A stretch of 55,145 bases of DNA from contig CAMKMS010000004.1 in assembly GCA_946413985.1 (NCBI GenBank), positions 1 through 55,145 on the forward strand. The letters are read 5' to 3'. This DNA comes from an uncultured Mycoplasmatota bacterium. GTDB lineage: Bacteria > Bacillota_I > Bacilli_A > RF39 > UBA660. Under the pieces are notes generated by a model that worked only from the letters and a program-made list of their open reading frames with translations, did not search any database and had not been told where the DNA came from. This document shows, piece by piece, positions 256 to 55,145 of the stretch. The position numbers and the translations under genes were made by a program. Each line of letters starts with the position of its first letter. Within the stretch, counting starts at the first letter, position 1.

Positions 256-1296
256 ATGAAAGAAAAACTAGAAAGTATTAAAACTGAAGCATTAGAAGAA
301 ATTTTAAAATGTAATGATGAAGCATCAATTAATAATGTTAGATCAAAGTATTTAGGTAAAAAAAGTGCATTTAGTGATGTTATGAGTAATATGGCAAGTC
401 TATCACCTGATGAAAAAAAGTCAGTTGGAATGGTATCTAATGAAGTAAGAAATGCTATTACTGAAGCATTAGATAATAGACTAAAAGCTATTAAGGAAGA
501 AGAGTTAAATAAAAAACTAGAAAGTGATAAGATTGATATTACACTTCCAAGTAATATTAGAAGAAGTGGTTATTTGCATCCACTTACATTAGTTCGTGAA
601 GAGATAGAAGACTTATTTATATCAATGGGATATGATGTAGTAGACGGACCAGAAGTAGATTCTGATGCAAATTGTTTTGAAATGTTAAATTTACCAGCTT
701 CTCATCCAGCTAGAGATGCACAAGATAGTTTTTATATTACTGATGATATGCTTTTAAGACCACATACAAGTTCTATGCAAGTAAGAAGTATGCTTGCAAA
801 TGCAGAAAAGAAACCATTTAAACTTATTTGTCCTGGAAAAACATATAGAAGAGATGATGATGATGCAACTCATTCACATCAATTTAGTCAAGTTGAAGGA
901 CTTGTTGTTGGGGAAAATATTTCTTTATCTGACTTAAAGGGGACTTTAGAGTTATTTGCTAAAAAGATGTTTGGTGAAAGTCGTGAAATTAGATTTAGAG
1001 CTAGTTACTTCCCATTTACAGAACCTTCTTATGAAGTAGATGTATCATGTTTTAAATGTGATAAAAAAGGATGCAATATTTGTAAAGGAACTGGATGGAT
1101 TGAAATACTAGGTTGTGGAATGGTTCATCCAAATGTACTTGAGAATTGTGGATTTGATCATACTAAATATCAAGGATTTGCCTTTGGTGTTGGTATTGAA
1201 AGAGTTGCAAGTCTTAAGTATGGTGTTACTAATATTAGAGATTATTTTATTAATGATTATAGATTCCTTAAGAATTTTGATAGAAAGGAGATATAA
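256..1296 (+). CDS. pheS: Phenylalanyl-tRNA synthetase alpha subunit
   Basis: [50 protein letters not shown] motifs; RBS AAGGAGG. Confidence 0.98.
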
Positions 1297-47810: not shown

Positions 47811-48659
47811 ATGTCATTAACTAGAATTTATGATATTAATGATGCAAAATTAATTTTACGAAAAGATTTTAAAGATAGAATAAATGTTTATAGGCCTAAA
47901 AATGCATGGGATCTTGAAGGAACATTAGATTCAAAACCAATAAAAATAATATATTCAAATTATGATGATTGTTTGCTTGCTTCAACAGATTTAGAACATA
48001 GAGAAGTATTAGAAGAATTAATTCCTGTACTAACAAAAGCGATGAATAATTATGAACCAATTTGTAGTTATGACAAATTAAAAAAAGGGGCAAAACCTGA
48101 AACTGCTGAACCAACAATAGAATGGGATATAAAGAATCGCAAAGAAAGACTTGATGAATTAATTAATGGTAAAGGTTTTCCTGGCTATGAAGTGCTTAAT
48201 TTAAAAATTAATGAACCAACATATGGTATATATCCAGGGATTATCGAAGACCCAGGAAGAATTAATAATTTGGGTGAAATAGAACTATATTTTGCAATTG
48301 ATTATTTAGGTGGATACATTTGGCAATGCAATCATGCTATGGCCGATGGAAAAATGCCTGAAATAGATTTATCTGAAGAACAATATGCCCTAGAATATTT
48401 GGTATATCAAACAACAAAATTTGGTGTAGAGTTACCAAAACCAGAAAAAGGTAAACACATTACACCAACACCATCATATTGGGCTTGGTTTAGATTTTAT
48501 GATAATCATTTCAAAAATGTTCTTACAAATGAGCAATGGGCTGCCTTTCAGGAAGCACAAAATAACGACAAAGATATATCAGAATTCATGCCTAGCGGGC
48601 ACTGGACCGATTTATTAGAAAAAAAGCCAGCAAAGACTAGAGTTAAAAATAAAAAATGA
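47811..48659 (+). CDS. Hypothetical protein
   Basis: 282-aa ORF, RBS GGGAGG, upstream TGaTATAAT; basic C-terminal tail. Confidence 0.75.
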   Translation: MSLTRIYDINDAKLILRKDFKDRINVYRPKNAWDLEGTLDSKPIKIIYSNYDDCLLASTDLEHREVLEELIPVLTKAMNNYEPICSYDKLKKGAKPETAEPTIEWDIKNRKERLDELINGKGFPGYEVLNLKINEPTYGIYPGIIEDPGRINNLGEIELYFAIDYLGGYIWQCNHAMADGKMPEIDLSEEQYALEYLVYQTTKFGVELPKPEKGKHITPTPSYWAWFRFYDNHFKNVLTNEQWAAFQEAQNNDKDISEFMPSGHWTDLLEKKPAKTRVKNKK

Positions 48660-48699
48660 AATGTTTAATAAAATATCAATCTATGCTATAATATTTATA

Positions 48700-48788
48700 G
48701 CAGTTGAATGGTATGAAAGTAGTTTCACAACCGGTAACTACTGGTGCCATTATGATTATTACTCAAACTATTATAGTTTGAGTTTTTT
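48700..48788 (+). ncRNA. Candidate small RNA A (own promoter and terminator)
   Basis: TGcTATAAT (48684-48692); stem AATGGTA/TGCCATT enclosing further helices; terminator ACTCAAACTA-TTA-TAGTTTGAGT-TTTTT; no ORF. Confidence 0.55.
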
Positions 48789-48798
48789 ATTTAAATGC

Positions 48799-48827
48799 TT
48801 TACAAACATATTTTTGTGTTATATAAT
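48799..48827 (+). promoter_or_regulatory. Sigma-A promoter of rhuM-Fic leader (copy 1)
   Basis: TTTACA-17 bp-TATAAT. Confidence 0.8.
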
Positions 48828-48833
48828 TAATTT

Positions 48834-48957
48834 GTAATAATTACTTGCCAAGTGTTATTATGACAATTTGTTCGACTAGGGTTTTCTATTTAAGGCAAGA
48901 TAAATAGATTGCATGCATGCGGAGATATACTTTTTTAAGTATGTCTCCTTTTTTTTT
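48834..48957 (+). ncRNA. Structured leader RNA with kissing loops and terminator (copy 1)
   Basis: Hairpin GTAATAA/TTATTAT with CTTGCC at its tip; hairpin TCTATTTA/TAAATAGA with loop GGCAAG; terminator GGAGATATACTT/AAGTATGTCTCC-T9; conserved in copy 2. Confidence 0.75.
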
Positions 48958-48997
48958 GCAAGTAATTATTAAGAATAACAATAAAAGGAGGTATGTT

Positions 48998-49954
48998 ATG
49001 AAAAATGAAATTGTTATTTTTGAAAATCAAAATGTAAGATTGGAGGTGAGTTTAAAAGATGAAACAGTTTGGTTGTCTTTAGAACAAATATCAAAATTAT
49101 TTGAAAGGGATAGAACTGTAGTTTTAAGACATATCAACAATATTTTTAAAGAGGGAGAATTAAATAAAGAAGAGGTAATTGCAAAATTTGCACATACCAC
49201 TTTACATGGAGCAATTGAAAATAAAACACAAACAAGGATGCTAGATTTTTATAATTTAGATGTAATAATATCAGTTGGTTATCGTGTTAAATCTAAGAAT
49301 GGTATTATTTTTAGAAAATGGGCAAGTAGTATTTTAAAAGATTATATGTTAAAAGGTTTAGCTATAAATAATAAAAGATTAGAATTTTTAGAAAGAAGTG
49401 TAAAATTAATTGAAATAGCAAATAGGGGAACTGATAGGATAAGTGACTCTGAGGCTAAAGACATATTAAATGTAATAGGACAATATACTAAATCGCTAGA
49501 TTTGCTTGATGATTATGATCATAGATCTCTAACAAAAGTTAAAGGTAATAAAGATAGTAGAATTATTGCATATAATGATTGCTTAGAATTAATATCTAAA
49601 TTAAAGTTTAATAATGATAGTAATGTATTTGGAATAGAAAGAAATCATGGACTAGAGTCAATTATAAATGATATATATCTAACATTTGATGGAAAGGATG
49701 TATATGATAGTATAGAATTAAAAGCATGTAATTTCTTATATACTTTAATTAAAAATCATCCATTTGTTGATGGTAATAAAAGAATAGCAGCAACATTATT
49801 TATATACTTTTTAAATTATTATGGATTGTTATATAAAAATGAAAAGCAAATAATTGATAATAATACACTTACTGCTATGACTCTTTTAATAGCAGAATCA
49901 AGTCCAAAAGAAAAAGAGATAATTATAGATTTAGTTATGAATTTTTTAAATTAA
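48998..49954 (+). CDS. RhuM-family N-domain fused to Fic/Doc domain
   Basis: ETVWLS..ISKLF, RHINNIF, YNLDVIISVGYRVKS...FRKWA (RhuM); HPFVDGNKRIA (Doc-type Fic motif). True start ATG 48998 behind AAAGGAGG. Confidence 0.92.
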   Translation: MKNEIVIFENQNVRLEVSLKDETVWLSLEQISKLFERDRTVVLRHINNIFKEGELNKEEVIAKFAHTTLHGAIENKTQTRMLDFYNLDVIISVGYRVKSKNGIIFRKWASSILKDYMLKGLAINNKRLEFLERSVKLIEIANRGTDRISDSEAKDILNVIGQYTKSLDLLDDYDHRSLTKVKGNKDSRIIAYNDCLELISKLKFNNDSNVFGIERNHGLESIINDIYLTFDGKDVYDSIELKACNFLYTLIKNHPFVDGNKRIAATLFIYFLNYYGLLYKNEKQIIDNNTLTAMTLLIAESSPKEKEIIIDLVMNFLN

Positions 49955-49971
49955 TGTGATATATTATATTT

Positions 49972-50066
49972 GGAATTGAATTCCTTTTTATGTGACCCCT
50001 AGTCAAATATGGTAATACTTGATGTGCCATTTAGAATATTAGTCGAACTAAAATAGTTCGATTTTT
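49972..50066 (+). ncRNA. Candidate small RNA B
   Basis: TGaTATATT (49957-49965); hairpins GGAAT/ATTCC, TGAC/GTCA, ATGGTA/TGCCAT; terminator GTCGAACTA-AAA-TAGTTCGAT-TTTT. Confidence 0.5.
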
Positions 50067-50075
50067 AATTTTTTA

Positions 50076-50104
50076 TTTACAAACAAATATTTGCGTTATA
50101 TAAT
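50076..50104 (+). promoter_or_regulatory. Sigma-A promoter of rhuM leader (copy 2)
   Basis: TTTACA-17 bp-TATAAT. Confidence 0.8.
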
Positions 50105-50110
50105 TAATAT

Positions 50111-50231
50111 GTAATAATTACCTGCCAAGAGTTATTATGACAATTAGATTGACTAGGGTTTTCTATTTAAGGCAAGATAAATAGATTGCAAGCATGCGGA
50201 GATATACTATAAATAGTATGTCTCCTTTTTT
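50111..50231 (+). ncRNA. Structured leader RNA with kissing loops and terminator (copy 2)
   Basis: Same helices as copy 1 (loop CCTGCC vs GGCAAG); terminator GGAGATATACTA/TAGTATGTCTCC-T6 with a compensatory change. Confidence 0.75.
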
Positions 50232-50270
50232 GTTGATCCATGTAAATAGCGATTGAAAAGGAGGTAAATT

Positions 50271-50633
50271 ATGAAAAATGAAATTGTTATTTTTGAAAAC
50301 CAAAATGTAAGATTGGAGGTGAATTTGAAAGATGATACTGTTTGGTTAAATTCAAATCAAATATCTGATTTGTTTGATAGAGATTTTAAAACAATTAGAA
50401 AACATATTAATAATGCTTTAAAGGAAGAATTAGATAATTCAGCTATCGCAAAATTTGCGACAGTTCAACAAGAAGGAAGTAGAAAAATTAAACGTAATAT
50501 TGAATATTACAATTTAGATATGATAATTAGTGTTGGTTATCGAGTTAAATCTAAAAATGGTATTATTTTTAGAAAATGGGCAACTAGTGTTTTAAAAGAA
50601 AATAAGTACAGGATAAAAGGAAAGCTTGTTTAA
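50271..50633 (+). CDS. RhuM-family domain only (truncated paralog lacking Fic)
   Basis: MKNEIVIFENQNVRLEV identical to copy 1; YNLDMIISVGYRVKS..FRKWATSVLK, then unrelated tail and stop. Confidence 0.8.
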   Translation: MKNEIVIFENQNVRLEVNLKDDTVWLNSNQISDLFDRDFKTIRKHINNALKEELDNSAIAKFATVQQEGSRKIKRNIEYYNLDMIISVGYRVKSKNGIIFRKWATSVLKENKYRIKGKLV

Positions 50634-50697
50634 CTTAAAAATTGACAAAATGTATTACAAATGATACACTCTAATATGAAAGTGAGGAAAAGATAAA

Positions 50698-50916
50698 ATG
50701 TATAATGATCGTGTTGATCGTTGGGAGTCAGTTGCAGCGCAACATATTGCTGATGAATTAGCTGTTAAAAATATGATTGAGACACTAAAATTATCTCTAT
50801 ACAGTGATGAAGAATTTGAATATATTAAGGCTGCAATTAGAACTCATAATTTAATGAACGCTGAAAGAGTGATGAATTTTGCACAACAACAAGAGGAAAA
50901 ATCAAACGATAGATAA
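50698..50916 (+). CDS. Small hypothetical protein
   Basis: Promoter TTGACA-17-TACACT (50642-50670), RBS GAGG, terminator at 50941-50971. Confidence 0.65.
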   Translation: MYNDRVDRWESVAAQHIADELAVKNMIETLKLSLYSDEEFEYIKAAIRTHNLMNAERVMNFAQQQEEKSNDR

Positions 50917-51038
50917 AATAAATCACTAATTAAAATGTAAAAGTCACTAATAGAATAGTTAGTGCTTTTTTGTTAAATCTTTAACTAATTTAAATGTTTC
51001 AAATACAACTAATTTTTCATAATTAAAACTATCATCAT

Positions 51039-51222
51039 GCATTTTAGAAGGATTTACAACTATAGATGAATTACAACAAGGTGATAAGGCTGGGCACTAT
51101 TTAGAAACGTTTGTAATAAGTGAAATAGTTAAAAATCATAATGCAGAAGGAATTACTCTTAATATCTTTTATTATAGAGATAAAAAAATAAAATTGATTT
51201 AATTTTTGATCAAAACAATACT
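51039..51222 (+). pseudogene. Remnant of AAA+ ATPase/DUF4143 C-terminal domain
   Basis: Manual translation EGFTTIDELQQGDKAGHYLETFVISEIVKNHNAEGITLNIFYYRDK, frameshift in an A-run, then KIDLIFDQNNT; matches G.xfE.fV.sEi...fyyRd...eIDli; no start or ATPase domain. Confidence 0.7.
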
Positions 51223-51307
51223 AAATTTAAAATAAATATATGTATTTATTAATCAAATTATATCCCTATATTTTTTTAAACAAACGAATATAAAGTATGG
51301 AGTTTAT

Positions 51308-51341
51308 AAAAAAAGTCGGTTCAATTATGAATCGACTTTTT
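51308..51341. terminator. Bidirectional-type terminator, probably ending the minus-strand 911-aa gene
   Basis: AAAAAGTCGGTTCA-ATTA-TGAATCGACTTTTT. Confidence 0.75.
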
Positions 51342-51417
51342 GTTTTAAAAAATACATTTATAAAATTATCTTATTATACTTTTTAAAATATTATGAATTA
51401 TTTTAATTGAGTATAGT

Positions 51418-54153
51418 TTATTTTAGTTTTTTTATTAGTTGTGGTTCTTGTAATTGATTTCCTTTATAAGAATTTATTCTAAATTCATTTAAAGCATTAT
51501 TATATTCAGTTAAAGCTCTTTCATCATATTTTAAATAGTCACCATATATGTTTCCATCGTATGTTTTAATAATATACCAGTCTTCATTATACATACAATA
51601 AGTAAAACCGTATTTATCGCATAATTTAAAATCTTCTGCTTCTTCTAAATCACAATTTACATACCTAACTGCATTTATAATTTTTAATGCTTTTTCTTGC
51701 TCGTTTCTAGGAGATCTGAAAAAATCACAACAACATATTAATGGTCTTGGATCTTGATAACTACACTTTGGATTACCATATTTAATATTATTTAAATCTA
51801 ATTTAGGATTCTTATATATTATTGTTAAATTTTTATGATATACATCAGTTCTTCTATATGTTAAATCATCTTTTTCAAAAATAGTTGGTGTTTGTATATC
51901 ATCTGGAAATGGCTCTCCCTCTGGTCTTGCATATGCATCAGTTCCTATACATACTAGATTTATTGGATTATCTCCATTTTTATTATTTTGAGATACATTA
52001 ACAATATCTTTAATGGCTTCTTTAAACGCTTCAATTGCTTTTTCATTTATTAACTTATGTGTACACTCTATACTATTTGCAATTAAAACTTCACCATTTC
52101 TCTTTAGTGGAGCAAATCCTGCAATCTCATTATTTTGATCGTATATTATTAATATTCTACCATTTCTACATAATGTTGCATGTAATAAATGATTATGTGC
52201 TATATCATGAATTCTTATACAACAATTACCTTTATAACCAAGTGTAAATGCAATTGGATCATTTAATTTCATCATTTCATAAGAATATCCATTTGAACAA
52301 CTTCCTTTAACATATGGAATACTAGATTCTGTTCTTCTTTTCATTTGTTCATAGACATCTAATACTGATTTATAGATTTCTTCATTAGGCTTTTTTGTTT
52401 TATTTCCTAAGCATATATCATTTAATATATCATTTTCAGTTAACTTATAATTATCTGGTGACACATCATTTATATCTCTTGAGGGAGATAATTGTTTAAA
52501 TAAAATATTTAATTTTTTTAAAGTAATTTTACCATGGCATTTTTCTTTTAATTCATCGAAATTATTATATAATAAAGGCCAATATGAATATAATCCAGTA
52601 TAAGATTTATCTGATCTATGTTTAAGCATTTCTATAAAATGATTATTATTTTGACTTGAAAACATGAAATTTAAAAAATCATTAGAAAGAATTGGTAAAT
52701 ATTTATTTCCTTCGTTTTTAAATTCAACATTTTTAACATTTAAAGAACCAGCTCTTTCTAAAAACATTGCACCTACATCAGGAAACTCTTTGCTAAAAAA
52801 AGTTAAAACTCTTTCTAAACCAAAGACTAAATATAATTTAATTGCACATGAATATGTATTTGATAATTCATCTTCATAAGCAAAATAAGTTTTTTCTTGT
52901 AACTCTTTTACTATTTTATTTATATGTTTAACATTTATATATTCAATTTGTTTAAATGATATTCCATTTAAATAATCCATTCTATTAGAAGTTTTTCCAA
53001 ATTTTAAATAAAATGCAGTCTTTAATGTATCAGGACTGTGAAATAGTTTTCCAAAATCTTCTTTTGTAATACTTTTTGTTTTAAGTTTATTATACAATGC
53101 TTCTTTTAAAAGTCTTATTTCATTTTCATCTAATTCTAGATTATTACATAATATACTATATAAGAAATCTATAAAGTTATTTTTAACTATCTCATTATCT
53201 TTGCATTGATCTATAATAACATTAAAATATATATAATCAATTTCTGAAAAAAATATATAGTTTCTATTTAATAAATGTGGAAATATTTTATTAAAATCAA
53301 AATTATTACTTTTGATGAATTCAATAATACCTTTTTCTAAAAAGTCTTGTATAAATTTTTTATCAATATTTTTAAATTCTAAGAGTTCTTTTATCATTTC
53401 AGTAGTCATTAGAGATAAAGTCCTTTTATCTACAATAACTCTATCTTTTTTATAAGAATGACTTCTTTTATTCATCAAAAATTCTTTTGGATCTACTATT
53501 TTATCATAATCATCTGATAAGAGAATATGTTCACTTACATTATTAAAAATTGTAAGAATATTTCTTTTTCTTGAAATATAAGTATTAAAAATCTCTTCAT
53601 CATTTATTATATTATAAAATAGTTTTACTTCGTTTATTCCTTTAAAGAATGATGAAGAAAGTTGTTTATAAGAACATAATGCAATAATTCTTTGAAAATA
53701 TTTACTTTCAATTATTTGTTCATATATTTTTGGACTTTTAATAGAATGTAAAAAGTTTTCTAATTGTCTTAATTCTTCTTCATTAAAAGAAATTTCTTTT
53801 CTATTATAGTTATCAAATAATTCTTTTCTATTTAAAGATTGTCTTGGCGCTAGTAATAAATCTTGTGTTTTTTCATGGGAAAACATTATTTCTTGGAAAA
53901 AAGGTGGTACTTTTCTAAAAATAGTTCTTAATATTTCTGTATTATCTATATTTAATATAACATTTTGAACTGATGGAGTGTTAAATATTATTAATGCTTC
54001 TTCTTTTGTTATAGTTGGTAATATTTTTACAGCTTTTCCATTTCTAGTTTTCTGTTTATTATAACCCATACCACTTTTAGCATAATAATTGCTTATTTGA
54101 CTTAATATAGAAATCTTTTTATCTAAAGTTAATGTTTGAATATCTTGTTCCAT
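51418..54153 (-). CDS. Large hypothetical protein with a PcfJ-like/GNAT-like C-terminal region
   Basis: 911-aa ORF, RBS AGGGGG; YEMMKLNDPIAFTLGYKGNCC...RILIIYDQNNEIAGF...VLIANSIE. Confidence 0.7.
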   Translation of the reverse strand: MEQDIQTLTLDKKISILSQISNYYAKSGMGYNKQKTRNGKAVKILPTITKEEALIIFNTPSVQNVILNIDNTEILRTIFRKVPPFFQEIMFSHEKTQDLLLAPRQSLNRKELFDNYNRKEISFNEEELRQLENFLHSIKSPKIYEQIIESKYFQRIIALCSYKQLSSSFFKGINEVKLFYNIINDEEIFNTYISRKRNILTIFNNVSEHILLSDDYDKIVDPKEFLMNKRSHSYKKDRVIVDKRTLSLMTTEMIKELLEFKNIDKKFIQDFLEKGIIEFIKSNNFDFNKIFPHLLNRNYIFFSEIDYIYFNVIIDQCKDNEIVKNNFIDFLYSILCNNLELDENEIRLLKEALYNKLKTKSITKEDFGKLFHSPDTLKTAFYLKFGKTSNRMDYLNGISFKQIEYINVKHINKIVKELQEKTYFAYEDELSNTYSCAIKLYLVFGLERVLTFFSKEFPDVGAMFLERAGSLNVKNVEFKNEGNKYLPILSNDFLNFMFSSQNNNHFIEMLKHRSDKSYTGLYSYWPLLYNNFDELKEKCHGKITLKKLNILFKQLSPSRDINDVSPDNYKLTENDILNDICLGNKTKKPNEEIYKSVLDVYEQMKRRTESSIPYVKGSCSNGYSYEMMKLNDPIAFTLGYKGNCCIRIHDIAHNHLLHATLCRNGRILIIYDQNNEIAGFAPLKRNGEVLIANSIECTHKLINEKAIEAFKEAIKDIVNVSQNNKNGDNPINLVCIGTDAYARPEGEPFPDDIQTPTIFEKDDLTYRRTDVYHKNLTIIYKNPKLDLNNIKYGNPKCSYQDPRPLICCCDFFRSPRNEQEKALKIINAVRYVNCDLEEAEDFKLCDKYGFTYCMYNEDWYIIKTYDGNIYGDYLKYDERALTEYNNALNEFRINSYKGNQLQEPQLIKKLK

Positions 54154-54218: not shown

Positions 54219-55145
54219 TCAATTCTTTTGTTTTCTAAATCCTAGTGATAATATAGCTGGTTTATTTCTATCTTTTTTTATTGATTTAAAACAGTTAATA
54301 ACTAATTGAGTTCCAATAGTATCATTTGAATGTTTGTCTAAATATTCATCACTTTCAACAAATTCATGAAAACTATCATTCATATCTGTTAATAATTCAT
54401 CATCTAAAAATAAGAATGCTGATCTTAAATAACATTGTCTTAATATAGAAGATAGTTTATTATCATCATCATATTTATATTCTTCATCAAATATATCAAT
54501 CAATCTAGATATTTGTTTTGCTGCTTCTTTTGCATAAAAATCATTACTTATTGACTTATAAAATGTTAAATTAACATTGTATACATCAGCAATTAATCTT
54601 GAACTAACATAAAATGTTTTAGGAATATCAAAACTGCTACTTAACATATCAGATTCTATTGATTTATTTATAAATGCTGTATTATATTTATTAATTATAA
54701 ATTGATCTTTTTTCTCTTCATAACTTTTGCTATTAGCAAAATCTTGCATGAATGATAAGTATCCATTAATTATATCTTTTTCAAATGCATTTCTTAATTT
54801 AGCACTTTTATAATCTGAAACTCCTATATTAAATAGATTATTTATAATACGTCTATATGTTCTAACATTATAATTTTGGTTTATTGTACTTTCAACATCA
54901 TTTTCTGTATTTTCTGGTAAGTTTTGTTCCATTATATAAAATGTTAAACCAACACCACGTTCTTCATTTATATTAGCATCACTATATATTTTATTTTCTT
55001 CTTCAACTGTTTCTTTTAATAATGTAATTAATCCATTATATTCTTTTGTATTCTTTTTACCATTTAGTTCTAATTCACACATTTTTTTATATAGTGATTC
55101 AATTGATTTAGTAATAATTAATAATTTATGTATTAAATCATAATC
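54219..55145 (-). CDS. Hypothetical helical protein, 5' end beyond the window
   Basis: Frame stays open from 55082 to the window edge (DYDLIHKLLIITKSIESLYKK-MCEL...). Confidence 0.7.
   Translation of the reverse strand, partial: DYDLIHKLLIITKSIESLYKKMCELELNGKKNTKEYNGLITLLKETVEEENKIYSDANINEERGVGLTFYIMEQNLPENTENDVESTINQNYNVRTYRRIINNLFNIGVSDYKSAKLRNAFEKDIINGYLSFMQDFANSKSYEEKKDQFIINKYNTAFINKSIESDMLSSSFDIPKTFYVSSRLIADVYNVNLTFYKSISNDFYAKEAAKQISRLIDIFDEEYKYDDDNKLSSILRQCYLRSAFLFLDDELLTDMNDSFHEFVESDEYLDKHSNDTIGTQLVINCFKSIKKDRNKPAILSLGFRKQKN

Follow-up and report, generated by a model that had tools for sequence, protein, structure and literature searches.

Type III toxin–antitoxin loci (ToxIN, AbiQ/antiQ, CptIN, and TenpIN) share a layout in which a promoter is followed by a pseudoknotted RNA, a terminator, and a potentially toxic gene that is reached by read-through. 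In ToxIN, this layout provides an excess of antitoxin RNA over toxin protein. The same order of parts occurs twice in a stretch of DNA of 55,145 nucleotides (nt) from an uncultured Mycoplasmatota bacterium, contig CAMKMS010000004.1 of assembly GCA_946413985.1; we refer to this whole stretch as the window. There, a duplicated leader RNA precedes a gene for a RhuM-Fic/Doc protein and, a second time, a remnant of a rhuM gene. A first-pass annotation of the window had taken the pair for an unrecognised RNA antitoxin or attenuator of RhuM-Doc proteins. Here, we report that the leader belongs to an orphan class of structured leader RNAs, strongly supported by covariation, that is absent from Rfam 15 and apparently restricted to one family of uncultured, small-genome gut Bacilli. 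We propose that it acts as a transcription gate before candidate defence genes.

The likeness to type III loci lies in the layout, and the differences lie in the parts. Type III RNAs are arrays of direct tandem repeats of about 34–36 nt that are processed into units, and the proteins they accompany are endoribonucleases of the ToxN/AbiQ, CptN, or TenpN type. The leader, in contrast, is a single unit of ~90 nt, its downstream proteins are mostly of the ORF6N or RhuM type, and it is interchangeable between protein classes. Terminating riboswitches and orphan riboswitch candidates are a second point of comparison. Like them, the leader sits in a 5′ untranslated region, and its conserved domain is pseudoknotted, with stems that covary and unpaired nucleotides that are invariant; an intrinsic terminator follows directly. 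Unlike in riboswitches, a mutually exclusive antiterminator helix was not detected at the leader, and the leader was found in one bacterial family only. It also fronts defence candidates rather than metabolic or transport genes, so that the genes suggest no ligand.

Two further systems bear on the architecture. The protein-dependent attenuation leaders of Firmicutes (ANTAR dual-hairpin, RAT/PRD, PyrR, and TRAP targets) likewise place one or two hairpins before a terminator. They rely on a trans-acting factor and have no long antiterminator, the bound hairpin overlapping the 5′ arm of the terminator. The ANTAR hairpins carry hexaloops that do not pair with each other, whereas the two loops of the leader do pair, and its second hairpin, P2, ends 12 nt before the terminator. 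Loop–loop pairing between neighbouring hairpins is known from L2 and L3 of the purine riboswitch, which are joined by Watson–Crick pairs, and the two hairpins of the leader are held in the same manner. The leader differs from the purine riboswitch in its 6-base-pair (bp) kiss helix, in having a linker of 20 nt rather than an 8-nt junction, and in the lack of a closing helix formed by the 5′ and 3′ ends; the purine models of Rfam do not match it.

The leader RNA and its relatives

The two window copies, identified by alignment and by repeat finding, form a 160 nt repeat of 90% identity, with copy 1 at 48799–48957 and copy 2 at 50076–50231. Their starts are 1277 nt apart, and each copy has its own promoter, TTTACA and TATAAT separated by a 17 nt spacer, at 48799–48827 and 50076–50104 on the forward strand. 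Both promoters match the consensus at 11 of 12 positions and are the two best promoter-like sites within 48400–51400; in copy 1, the −10 box ends 6 nt before the first hairpin, P1. Direct reading and alignment thus bore out the annotation's description of a duplicated non-coding element with this promoter, hairpins, and a terminator.

All parts of the element lie on the forward strand. In copy 1, a sensor-like domain made up of P1, a linker, P2, and a tail occupies 48830–48923. It scores 110.1 bits (expect value, E, 1.1e-18) with the covariance model R1 described below, a match that holds by construction, since copy 1 belonged to the R1 seed alignment. P1 extends from 48834 to 48861 (arms 48834–48841 and 48854–48861) and presents the loop CTTGCC at 48844–48849. 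The single-stranded linker J1/2, at 48862–48884, reads GACAATTT ... CG ... in the consensus of 145 distinct aligned sequences. P2 (48885–48908; arms 48885–48892 and 48901–48908) presents the loop GGCAAG at 48894–48899, the partner of 48844–48849. The conserved tail TGCATG..TGC, at 48909–48920, continues into the foot of the intrinsic terminator at 48921–48957, which consists of a 12-bp stem (48921–48948) and a run of 9 T and folds at −15.5 kcal/mol. Copy 2 repeats this arrangement, as follows. Its sensor-like domain spans 50107–50200 (R1, 101.1 bits). P1 is at 50111–50138 (arms 50111–50118 and 50131–50138) with the loop CCTGCC at 50121–50126, and P2 is at 50162–50185 (arms 50162–50169 and 50178–50185) with the loop GGCAAG at 50171–50176. 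The terminator, at 50198–50231, has 12 bp (50198–50225) and a T-run and folds at −15.1 kcal/mol. The scanned region contains four terminator-like sites, against 0.3 expected from shuffles.

Comparison of the two copies refines several details of the annotation. The difference between the terminator stems, CTT/AAG in one and CTA/TAG in the other, is real and compensatory, and the spacer between the T-run and the ribosome-binding site has diverged as described, with insertions and deletions. The loops said to be complementary are fully so in copy 1, where CTTGCC faces GGCAAG, while the loop–loop helix of copy 2 contains one C·A mismatch. The linker GACTAGGGTTTT, said to be invariant, is invariant between the two window copies; across the family, only GACAATTT, the CG, and the tail CATG..TGCGG are conserved. 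Upstream of the promoter, similarity between the copies continues for about 55 nt, into a second terminator (48761–48783 and 50041–50063). The pair of downstream coding sequences is less alike than the leaders, at 83% overall, 79% in the first 170 nt, and about 60% in mid-gene, compared with 90% for the leaders.

The element recurs well beyond this locus. A third copy is present in the genome of the window, on another contig (G000:C21:11481-11573; 87.8 bits, 75% identical), after dxs and before an ORF6N gene. Among 36 other genomes of the genus, 15 contain relatives by blastn. R1, a covariance model of P1 and P2 only, built from 22 sequences, gave 42 hits in 23 of the 50 genomes searched in the genus, with up to three copies per genome, each with its own cassette. 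In a draw of genomes at the order level, 19 of 151 were positive, and all 19 fell in the family of the window (18 of 87 genera). Under stricter Infernal filters, with which weak matches may have been lost, R1 found nothing in a class-level draw of 137 genomes from 25 other families, nor did a second model (58 sequences) in 148 other genomes drawn at the phylum level.

For scans of sequence collections, a degenerate pattern was built from the linker and tail, and its hits were checked by covariance model. On one-genome-per-species contigs, the pattern met 73 loci, of which 71 were model-confirmed; the two misses were a Yersinia contig and a contig of a Clostridia metagenome-assembled genome. 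On metagenomes, it met at least 120 stretches, and the 80 among the matches listed, together with one viral stretch, make 81 loci, 76 of them confirmed by the model. The viral stretch was not among the confirmed, phage and plasmid collections contained no blastn match to the leader, and an origin in phages or plasmids was rejected. The loci found by pattern are labelled as uncultured Bacilli, Erysipelotrichaceae, Tenericutes, "Clostridium sp. CAG:417, 451, 524 and 594", and "Firmicutes bacterium CAG:582", and they come from human, ruminant, and rabbit gut samples. In total, there are 210 hits and 174 unique instances, counting the metagenome loci among the matches listed (80 of at least 120), and all are from small-genome uncultured gut or rumen Bacilli of one family. 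Given the third copy in the same genome and the 210 model hits, the element is beyond chance. The covariance-model search that the annotation had suggested therefore turned a duplicated element into a family.

A divergent subgroup (L078–L083, L086, and L058), drawn from several genera, scores 37–48 bits. TTCGGG takes the place of TGCGG in its tail, and the first block of its linker differs; the kissing loops are retained, including in CTTACC/GGTAAG variants.

Covariation was assessed in three model-derived alignments, A5, A7, and A8, with 52, 65, and 60 distinct rows. P1 is 96.9–98.9% paired; of its 8 pairs, 6 in A5, 6 in A7, and 4 in A8 show compensatory changes. The inner P2 helix is 83–89% paired, and in both A7 and A8 every one of its 8 pairs shows such changes; A5, for which P2 was taken as a single helix of 10 pairs, has them at 9. 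For the loop–loop helix, pairing amounts to 92.9%, 97.7%, and 97.8%, and each alignment shows compensatory changes at 4 of the 6 pairs. None of 500 shuffles reached the observed covariation values in A5, A7, or A8, a control that overstates the significance because the sequences are related. When the 3′ partners were slid by 1–3 columns, pairing fell from about 90% to 37–57%. The alignments lean towards P1 and P2, having been fitted to those helices, and the loop–loop helix is the fairer test because it lies outside the search model. Pair counts over the 145 distinct sequences, merged on window numbering, show how its columns change together: pair 15–70 is CG in 99, GC in 14, UA in 13, AU in 4, and UG in 4; pair 20–65 is CG in 108, UA in 25, and UG in 8; pair 19–66 is CG in 125 and GC in 10; and pair 18–67 is GC in 123 and AU in 10. 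The kissing loop–loop pairing is real. The complementarity that the annotation had noticed between two loops at one locus covaries across all three alignments.

The unpaired parts are conserved in blocks: the 20-nt linker carries GACAATTT and CG, and TGCATG..TGCGG comes after P2. Both pattern scans required part of the linker and tail; hits derived from the pattern are thus no witness to the conservation of these blocks. In A5, the genome-search alignment, the blocks hold, with the exception of the divergent subgroup. A candidate 3-bp helix, P3, would join 48873–48875 to 48919–48921, that is, CG(N) of the linker to (N)CG of the tail. Two of its pairs are almost invariant, and the third is C–G in 9, A–U in 6, and unpaired in 37 of the 52 A5 rows, so P3 is at present a weakly supported helix. 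A possible tertiary pair, G33–C83, is GC in 39, AU in 3, GU in 3, UA in 1, and otherwise in 6 rows of A5 and is invariant in A7; its variation is small. Two other pairings were rejected. A long-range helix predicted by RNAalifold (A4 columns 4–8 with 83–87) competes with P1, and in several groups its 3′ columns are part of P2, which MAFFT had mis-registered. The outer two P2 pairs, G52–C83 and U53·G82, are paired in only 66–77% of cells.

Across the family, the domain is framed as it is in the window. In 153 of 167 instances, a promoter-like site ends 3–12 nt before P1; for shuffled upstream sequences, the figure is 44 of 167. An intrinsic terminator, with a median of −15.4 kcal/mol, directly follows the domain in 163 of 169 instances and, as in type III loci, stands between RNA and gene; two of the six misses are visible terminators with a mismatch in the foot. 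The gene starts some tens of nt past the terminator. The element thus has the layout of a complete transcription unit of ~125 nt with promoter and terminator, and the discrete structured RNA that the annotation placed between these two signals is predicted family-wide.

Within the promoter spacer, at 48802–48817 of the window, lies an inverted repeat, ACAAA(C)...(G)TTTGT, which also occurs in copy 2, the third copy, and L014. Judged by eye, the third copy and L014 carry a perfect version; the repeat is confined to the window's own leader group. It could be a repressor operator.

The family has no entry in Rfam 15 (4227 families). A search of 48000–51500 of the window at E up to 10 gave five weak matches, none on 48830–48923, with scores of 15–22 bits against gathering scores of 43–93.5. 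A search of nine further loci (eight from other genomes and the third copy) at E up to 1 gave no match at the motif, and the only confident match was a tRNA elsewhere in L070. The Infernal search proposed with the annotation thus leaves the element unrecognised, as had been supposed. In the portions of the literature that full-text searches returned, no link of ORF6N, RhuM, KilA-N, or Bro-N genes with an RNA motif was found, and, for the papers mentioning ORF6N among the matches listed, titles and opening lines of abstracts point to none about RNA leaders. The main text of Weinberg 2017 (PMC5737381) contains no ORF6N, KilA, BRO, RhuM, ToxN, or antirepressor. That of Fremin and Bhatt 2021 (PMC8040213) has only candidate ToxI RNAs upstream of ToxN, and that of a 2026 bioRxiv preprint on noncoding sequence space does not mention these gene families. 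The supplementary lists of all three, which run to thousands of unnamed candidates, may hold the motif unnamed.

Downstream genes and the portability of the leader

A downstream gene was accepted if a Shine–Dalgarno-like sequence preceded a start within 300 nt of the leader and the reading frame had at least 40 codons, a rule passed by 145 of the 174 unique instances. The genes were sorted into classes by BLAST clustering and family scans in which representatives, rather than each member, were scanned. ORF6N genes make up 103 of the 145, followed by RhuM genes (14; with Fic where full length), DinD of the Bro-N type (6), DUF1016-like genes (6), KilA-N genes (3), small metallophosphoesterases (3), restriction-enzyme-like genes (2), one toxN, one other Bro-N gene, and six other genes. 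Representatives match phage-defence-candidate models of PADLOC (PDC-S23, 3e-116; PDC-S05, 7e-90; PDC-S13, 7e-105; PDC-S02, 5e-138), and the DinD representative matches an NCBIfam equivalog at 1.7e-108. From these matches, the downstream genes appear to be of one functional kind, candidate anti-phage genes. The remaining 29 of the 174 instances are at contig ends or before ORF6N-like or RhuM-like starts broken by stops or deletions.

At a number of loci (L039, L118, L141, L149, L150, L176, L191, L195, L196, L221, L231, and L233), an intact leader RNA of 80–110 bits stands before an ORF6N-like or RhuM-like gene that is broken by stops or cut to about 20 codons. This suggests that the cassette genes turn over rapidly.

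In the window, the gene behind copy 1 (48998–49954, forward strand) encodes a RhuM-Fic/Doc protein of 318 residues (Pfam RhuM, 1.7e-20; Fic, 1.1e-10; PADLOC PDC-S23, 3.4e-116). The core motif of Fic proteins has the form HxFx(D/N)(G/A)N(G/K)R. The translation contains HPFVDGNKR, the Doc-type motif to which the annotation had drawn attention, and the Fic domain scores 42.7 bits in Pfam against a cut-off of 24. The NCBIfam model DOC_P1 gives 34.9 bits, under its cut-off of 38.65, and a comparison of the protein sequence with the Protein Data Bank gave no match. The annotation spoke of two rhuM genes. The first is this RhuM-Fic gene; the second, behind copy 2 (50271–50633, forward strand), is a truncated remnant, an N-terminal fragment of 120 residues that covers positions 2–59 of the 252 in the Pfam RhuM profile and has no Fic domain. 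Full-length relatives have 313–318 residues.

The leader is portable between gene classes. Window copy 1, which precedes the RhuM-Fic gene, shares 95% identity with the leader of an ORF6N gene. Identity is 96% between the ToxN leader and a RhuM leader, and 100%, over the positions aligned, between one DUF1016 leader and one from an ORF6N gene. Of the 34 non-ORF6N cases that allow a comparison, 16 have a nearest leader from another class that is at least as close as the nearest from their own. Leader sequence thus follows the host lineage and not the class of the downstream protein. This argues against recognition of the leader by the protein it precedes and for a common partner, either on the host side or a ligand. 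The suggestion that the RhuM domain binds the RNA is unsupported on the same ground, and on the count of downstream genes, only 14 of 145 of which are RhuM.

A candidate transcription gate and its rivals

We favour, with moderate confidence, the reading that the element is a portable gate on transcription that acts in cis, as an attenuator or riboswitch-like sensor placed before defence candidates. "Attenuator", the alternative word of the first-pass annotation, fits best. The gate would work as follows. The near-consensus promoter would fire a transcript beginning with P1, from which the 20-nt linker leads to P2. The P1 and P2 loops would pair over 6 bp, and P1, the loop–loop helix, and P2 could then stack as one rod, with the conserved tail leading straight into the strong intrinsic terminator. 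The promoter scan of the window region found no promoter-like site between the terminator and the RhuM-Fic start codon. Since a ribosome-binding site is present and a promoter of its own is absent, the downstream gene would be expressed only by read-through. The gate would thereby keep single-gene defence candidates (ORF6N, RhuM-Fic, DinD, DUF1016, KilA-N, and ToxN) off by default, and the folded kissing-loop domain would be its sensor. Sensor and terminator visibly overlap only at the terminator foot, in the conserved GCGG. This GCGG may instead pair with the CG of the linker, forming P3 and weakening the base pairs next to the U-tract. That termination is modulated at all is inferred. As for the effector, our expectation is split roughly into thirds, between a small molecule or ion, a host or phage protein or macromolecule, and no switching at all.

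Several results weigh against the gate, among them the relatedness of the aligned sequences and the demands of the pattern scans, as discussed above. No classical antiterminator was found. Over 142 instances, the sensor pairs no better with its own terminator than with a foreign one, at −5.15 versus −5.38 kcal/mol for the 5′ arm and −5.56 versus −5.60 kcal/mol for the 3′ arm, and the folds of truncated transcripts gave no consistent partner for a terminator arm. The overlap of P3 with the terminator is just 2–3 bp, in a weakly supported helix. By a folding program without pseudoknot modelling, the sensor domain alone folds no better than shuffled sequence (z +0.6 and +0.5), and z falls to −2.5 only when the terminator is included. 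The one-family distribution and the lack of a metabolic gene downstream offer no lead to a ligand. Finally, several intact RNAs precede deleted or broken genes, and an RNA that stays intact in such places could have a function of its own.

The type III reading, from which the annotation had started, fails on the repeats, the type of toxin, the ToxN locus, and the exchangeability of leaders. Tandem Repeats Finder, run on 48600–50700, detected no tandem repeats in either window leader. Of the window proteins, one combines RhuM with Fic and the other is a fragment of RhuM; neither is ToxN, CptN, or TenpN. The single toxN among the 145 downstream genes, at locus L035 (Pfam ToxN_toxin, 2.3e-35), is instructive. 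At 1676–1783 of L035 (G013:C6) lies an array of 3.1 tandem repeats of 34 nt (Tandem Repeats Finder score 123) with its own promoter-like site and terminator, and the order is repeat array, leader with its promoter, and toxN. Since this array with its terminator lies upstream of the leader promoter, ToxN has a ToxI-like RNA of its own. The leader between the ToxI-like array and toxN thus occupies what appears, from the gene order, to be the position of a control element.

An antitoxin-like role need not follow the type III pattern in full, and we considered a form in which an abundant terminated RNA holds a rare read-through protein inactive, for example, by way of a related N-terminal domain, and decays when a phage shuts off host transcription. 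A strong promoter, a pseudoknotted RNA, a strong terminator, and a possibly toxic gene would give an excess of RNA over protein, as in ToxIN, and 127 of the 145 downstream proteins do start with a domain of the ORF6N, RhuM, Bro-N, or KilA-N type. The remaining 18 (DUF1016, phosphoesterase, restriction-enzyme-like, ToxN, and others) do not, however, and the conserved single-stranded nucleotides do not vary with the class of protein, near-identical leaders standing before unrelated proteins. Given also the lack of tandem repeats in the leaders and the retention by ToxN of its own 34-nt array upstream of the element, we think such an inhibitor quite unlikely, even though it would accommodate both the missing antiterminator and the persistence of some RNAs beside dead genes. 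The same two observations, the latter in the form of intact RNAs before deleted ORF6N remnants in several related contigs, speak for a stand-alone small RNA that acts in trans, with read-through being incidental or a low basal level, and so does the complete ~125 nt unit with promoter and terminator. Such an RNA would not be expected directly upstream of, and co-oriented with, a promoterless gene of one functional kind in 145 of 174 instances, nor in up to three copies per genome, each tied to a cassette. Many of the remaining instances lie where a contig ends or ahead of broken versions of these genes, and the remnant cases are close relatives that may go back to a single recent deletion. We regard a stand-alone RNA as unlikely.

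Two further explanations fare worse. The leaders might be conserved as a recent segmental duplication or a recombination handle, through gene conversion rather than RNA function. In the window, similarity also takes in the initial 78 nt of the coding sequence and, ahead of the promoter, about 55 nt more; leaders are common to unrelated cassettes, and cassettes stand in tandem in L099, L100, L174, L189, and L206. Yet compensatory changes occur in three helices among 145 distinct sequences from many genera, the stems varying while pairing is kept. Because three helices covary, conversion alone is insufficient; as the sole explanation it is contradicted, and we give it very little weight. The leader may also serve as a recombination handle, which is compatible with an RNA function. 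Alternatively, an ATG at 48860 opens a frame of 15 codons whose translation might control termination; copies 1 and 2 each have such a frame, which starts with ATGACAATT and is closed by a TAG within the 3′ arm of P2. The ATG is replaced by ACG or GTG in some members, the frame stops after 10 codons in other groups, and the "codons" in P2 change as compensatory pairs. The frame also lacks a Shine–Dalgarno sequence, since the region upstream of it is the P1 stem. With neither start codon nor length conserved and with P2 compensatory, a leader peptide was rejected as scarcely credible.

The gate has one further, more tentative version, in which the leader is an infection sensor, a riboswitch-like class for anti-phage immunity. 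A signal present only in infected or damaged cells, for example, a nucleotide-derived molecule, a phage protein, or an altered RNA polymerase, would bind the kissing-loop domain and so open a shared terminator gate before unrelated abortive-infection effectors. We consider this version doubtful, and mention it for what it would mean: one portable RNA module would supply the "when to fire" logic for a set of defence candidates. To our knowledge, no activation mechanism has been described for the single-gene candidates RhuM-Fic, ORF6N, DinD, and DUF1016 (PADLOC PDC-S23, S05, S13, and S02), and literature searches, which were directed at RNA leaders, brought up none. That in one lineage the same pseudoknotted leader and terminator precede all these effectors, and also a ToxN that apparently has its own RNA antitoxin, points to a common control step at the RNA level for proteins that are otherwise unrelated. 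At ~125 nt, the leader is a compact object, with clear designs for compensatory mutations, in which to ask how potentially toxic immune genes stay silent and are released.

Surroundings of the cassettes

The window cassettes are chromosomal and follow the housekeeping genes ruvX, yceG, two U32 peptidase genes, greA, tig, tex, and gltX. Immediately upstream of copy 1 lies another small unit, at 48665–48792, with a promoter-like TTAATA-16-TATAAT carrying a TG extension (48665–48692) and its own terminator at 48761–48783. It contains a nested hairpin, AATGG...CCATT around GTAGTT...AACTAC, and folds at −25.8 kcal/mol (z −3.74; equalled by none of 200 shuffles); it matches no Rfam family. Relatives of this unit adjoin the leader in several genomes of the genus and precede the ToxI-like array in L035, the weaker matches mostly covering the terminator part only. 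The unit may be another small RNA or a cassette boundary. A TTTTTATGTGAC.CCTAGTCAAATAT stretch follows the terminator behind the cassette gene at 49985–50010 of the window and recurs in the L035 ToxN locus at ~920–945 (minus strand), possibly as the end of a cassette or as a scar left by recombination.

Behind the rhuM remnant are a promoter-like TTGACA-17-TACACT (50642–50670) and an open reading frame of 72 codons (50698–50916) whose product has no match in Pfam, PADLOC, or NCBIfam. Farther on, open reading frames of 911 codons (51418–54153) and 287 codons (54219–55082), both on the minus strand, adjoin the cassettes. Neither has a match in Pfam or NCBIfam; the larger has a weak PADLOC match to Cas6a alone (E 6e-4).

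Elsewhere in the family, paired leaders lie 0.6–4 kb apart on one contig in L099, L100, L174, L189, and L206, each with its own gene or remnant. The pair in L206 is convergent, and the others are mostly co-oriented; defence cassettes seem to stack in tandem. A survey of the neighbourhoods sorted 362 neighbouring open reading frames into 227 clusters, mostly of ordinary-looking genes. One cluster, of 433 residues, accounts for 36 of the 362 and recurs at cassettes, which suggests a preferred chromosomal site in one lineage.

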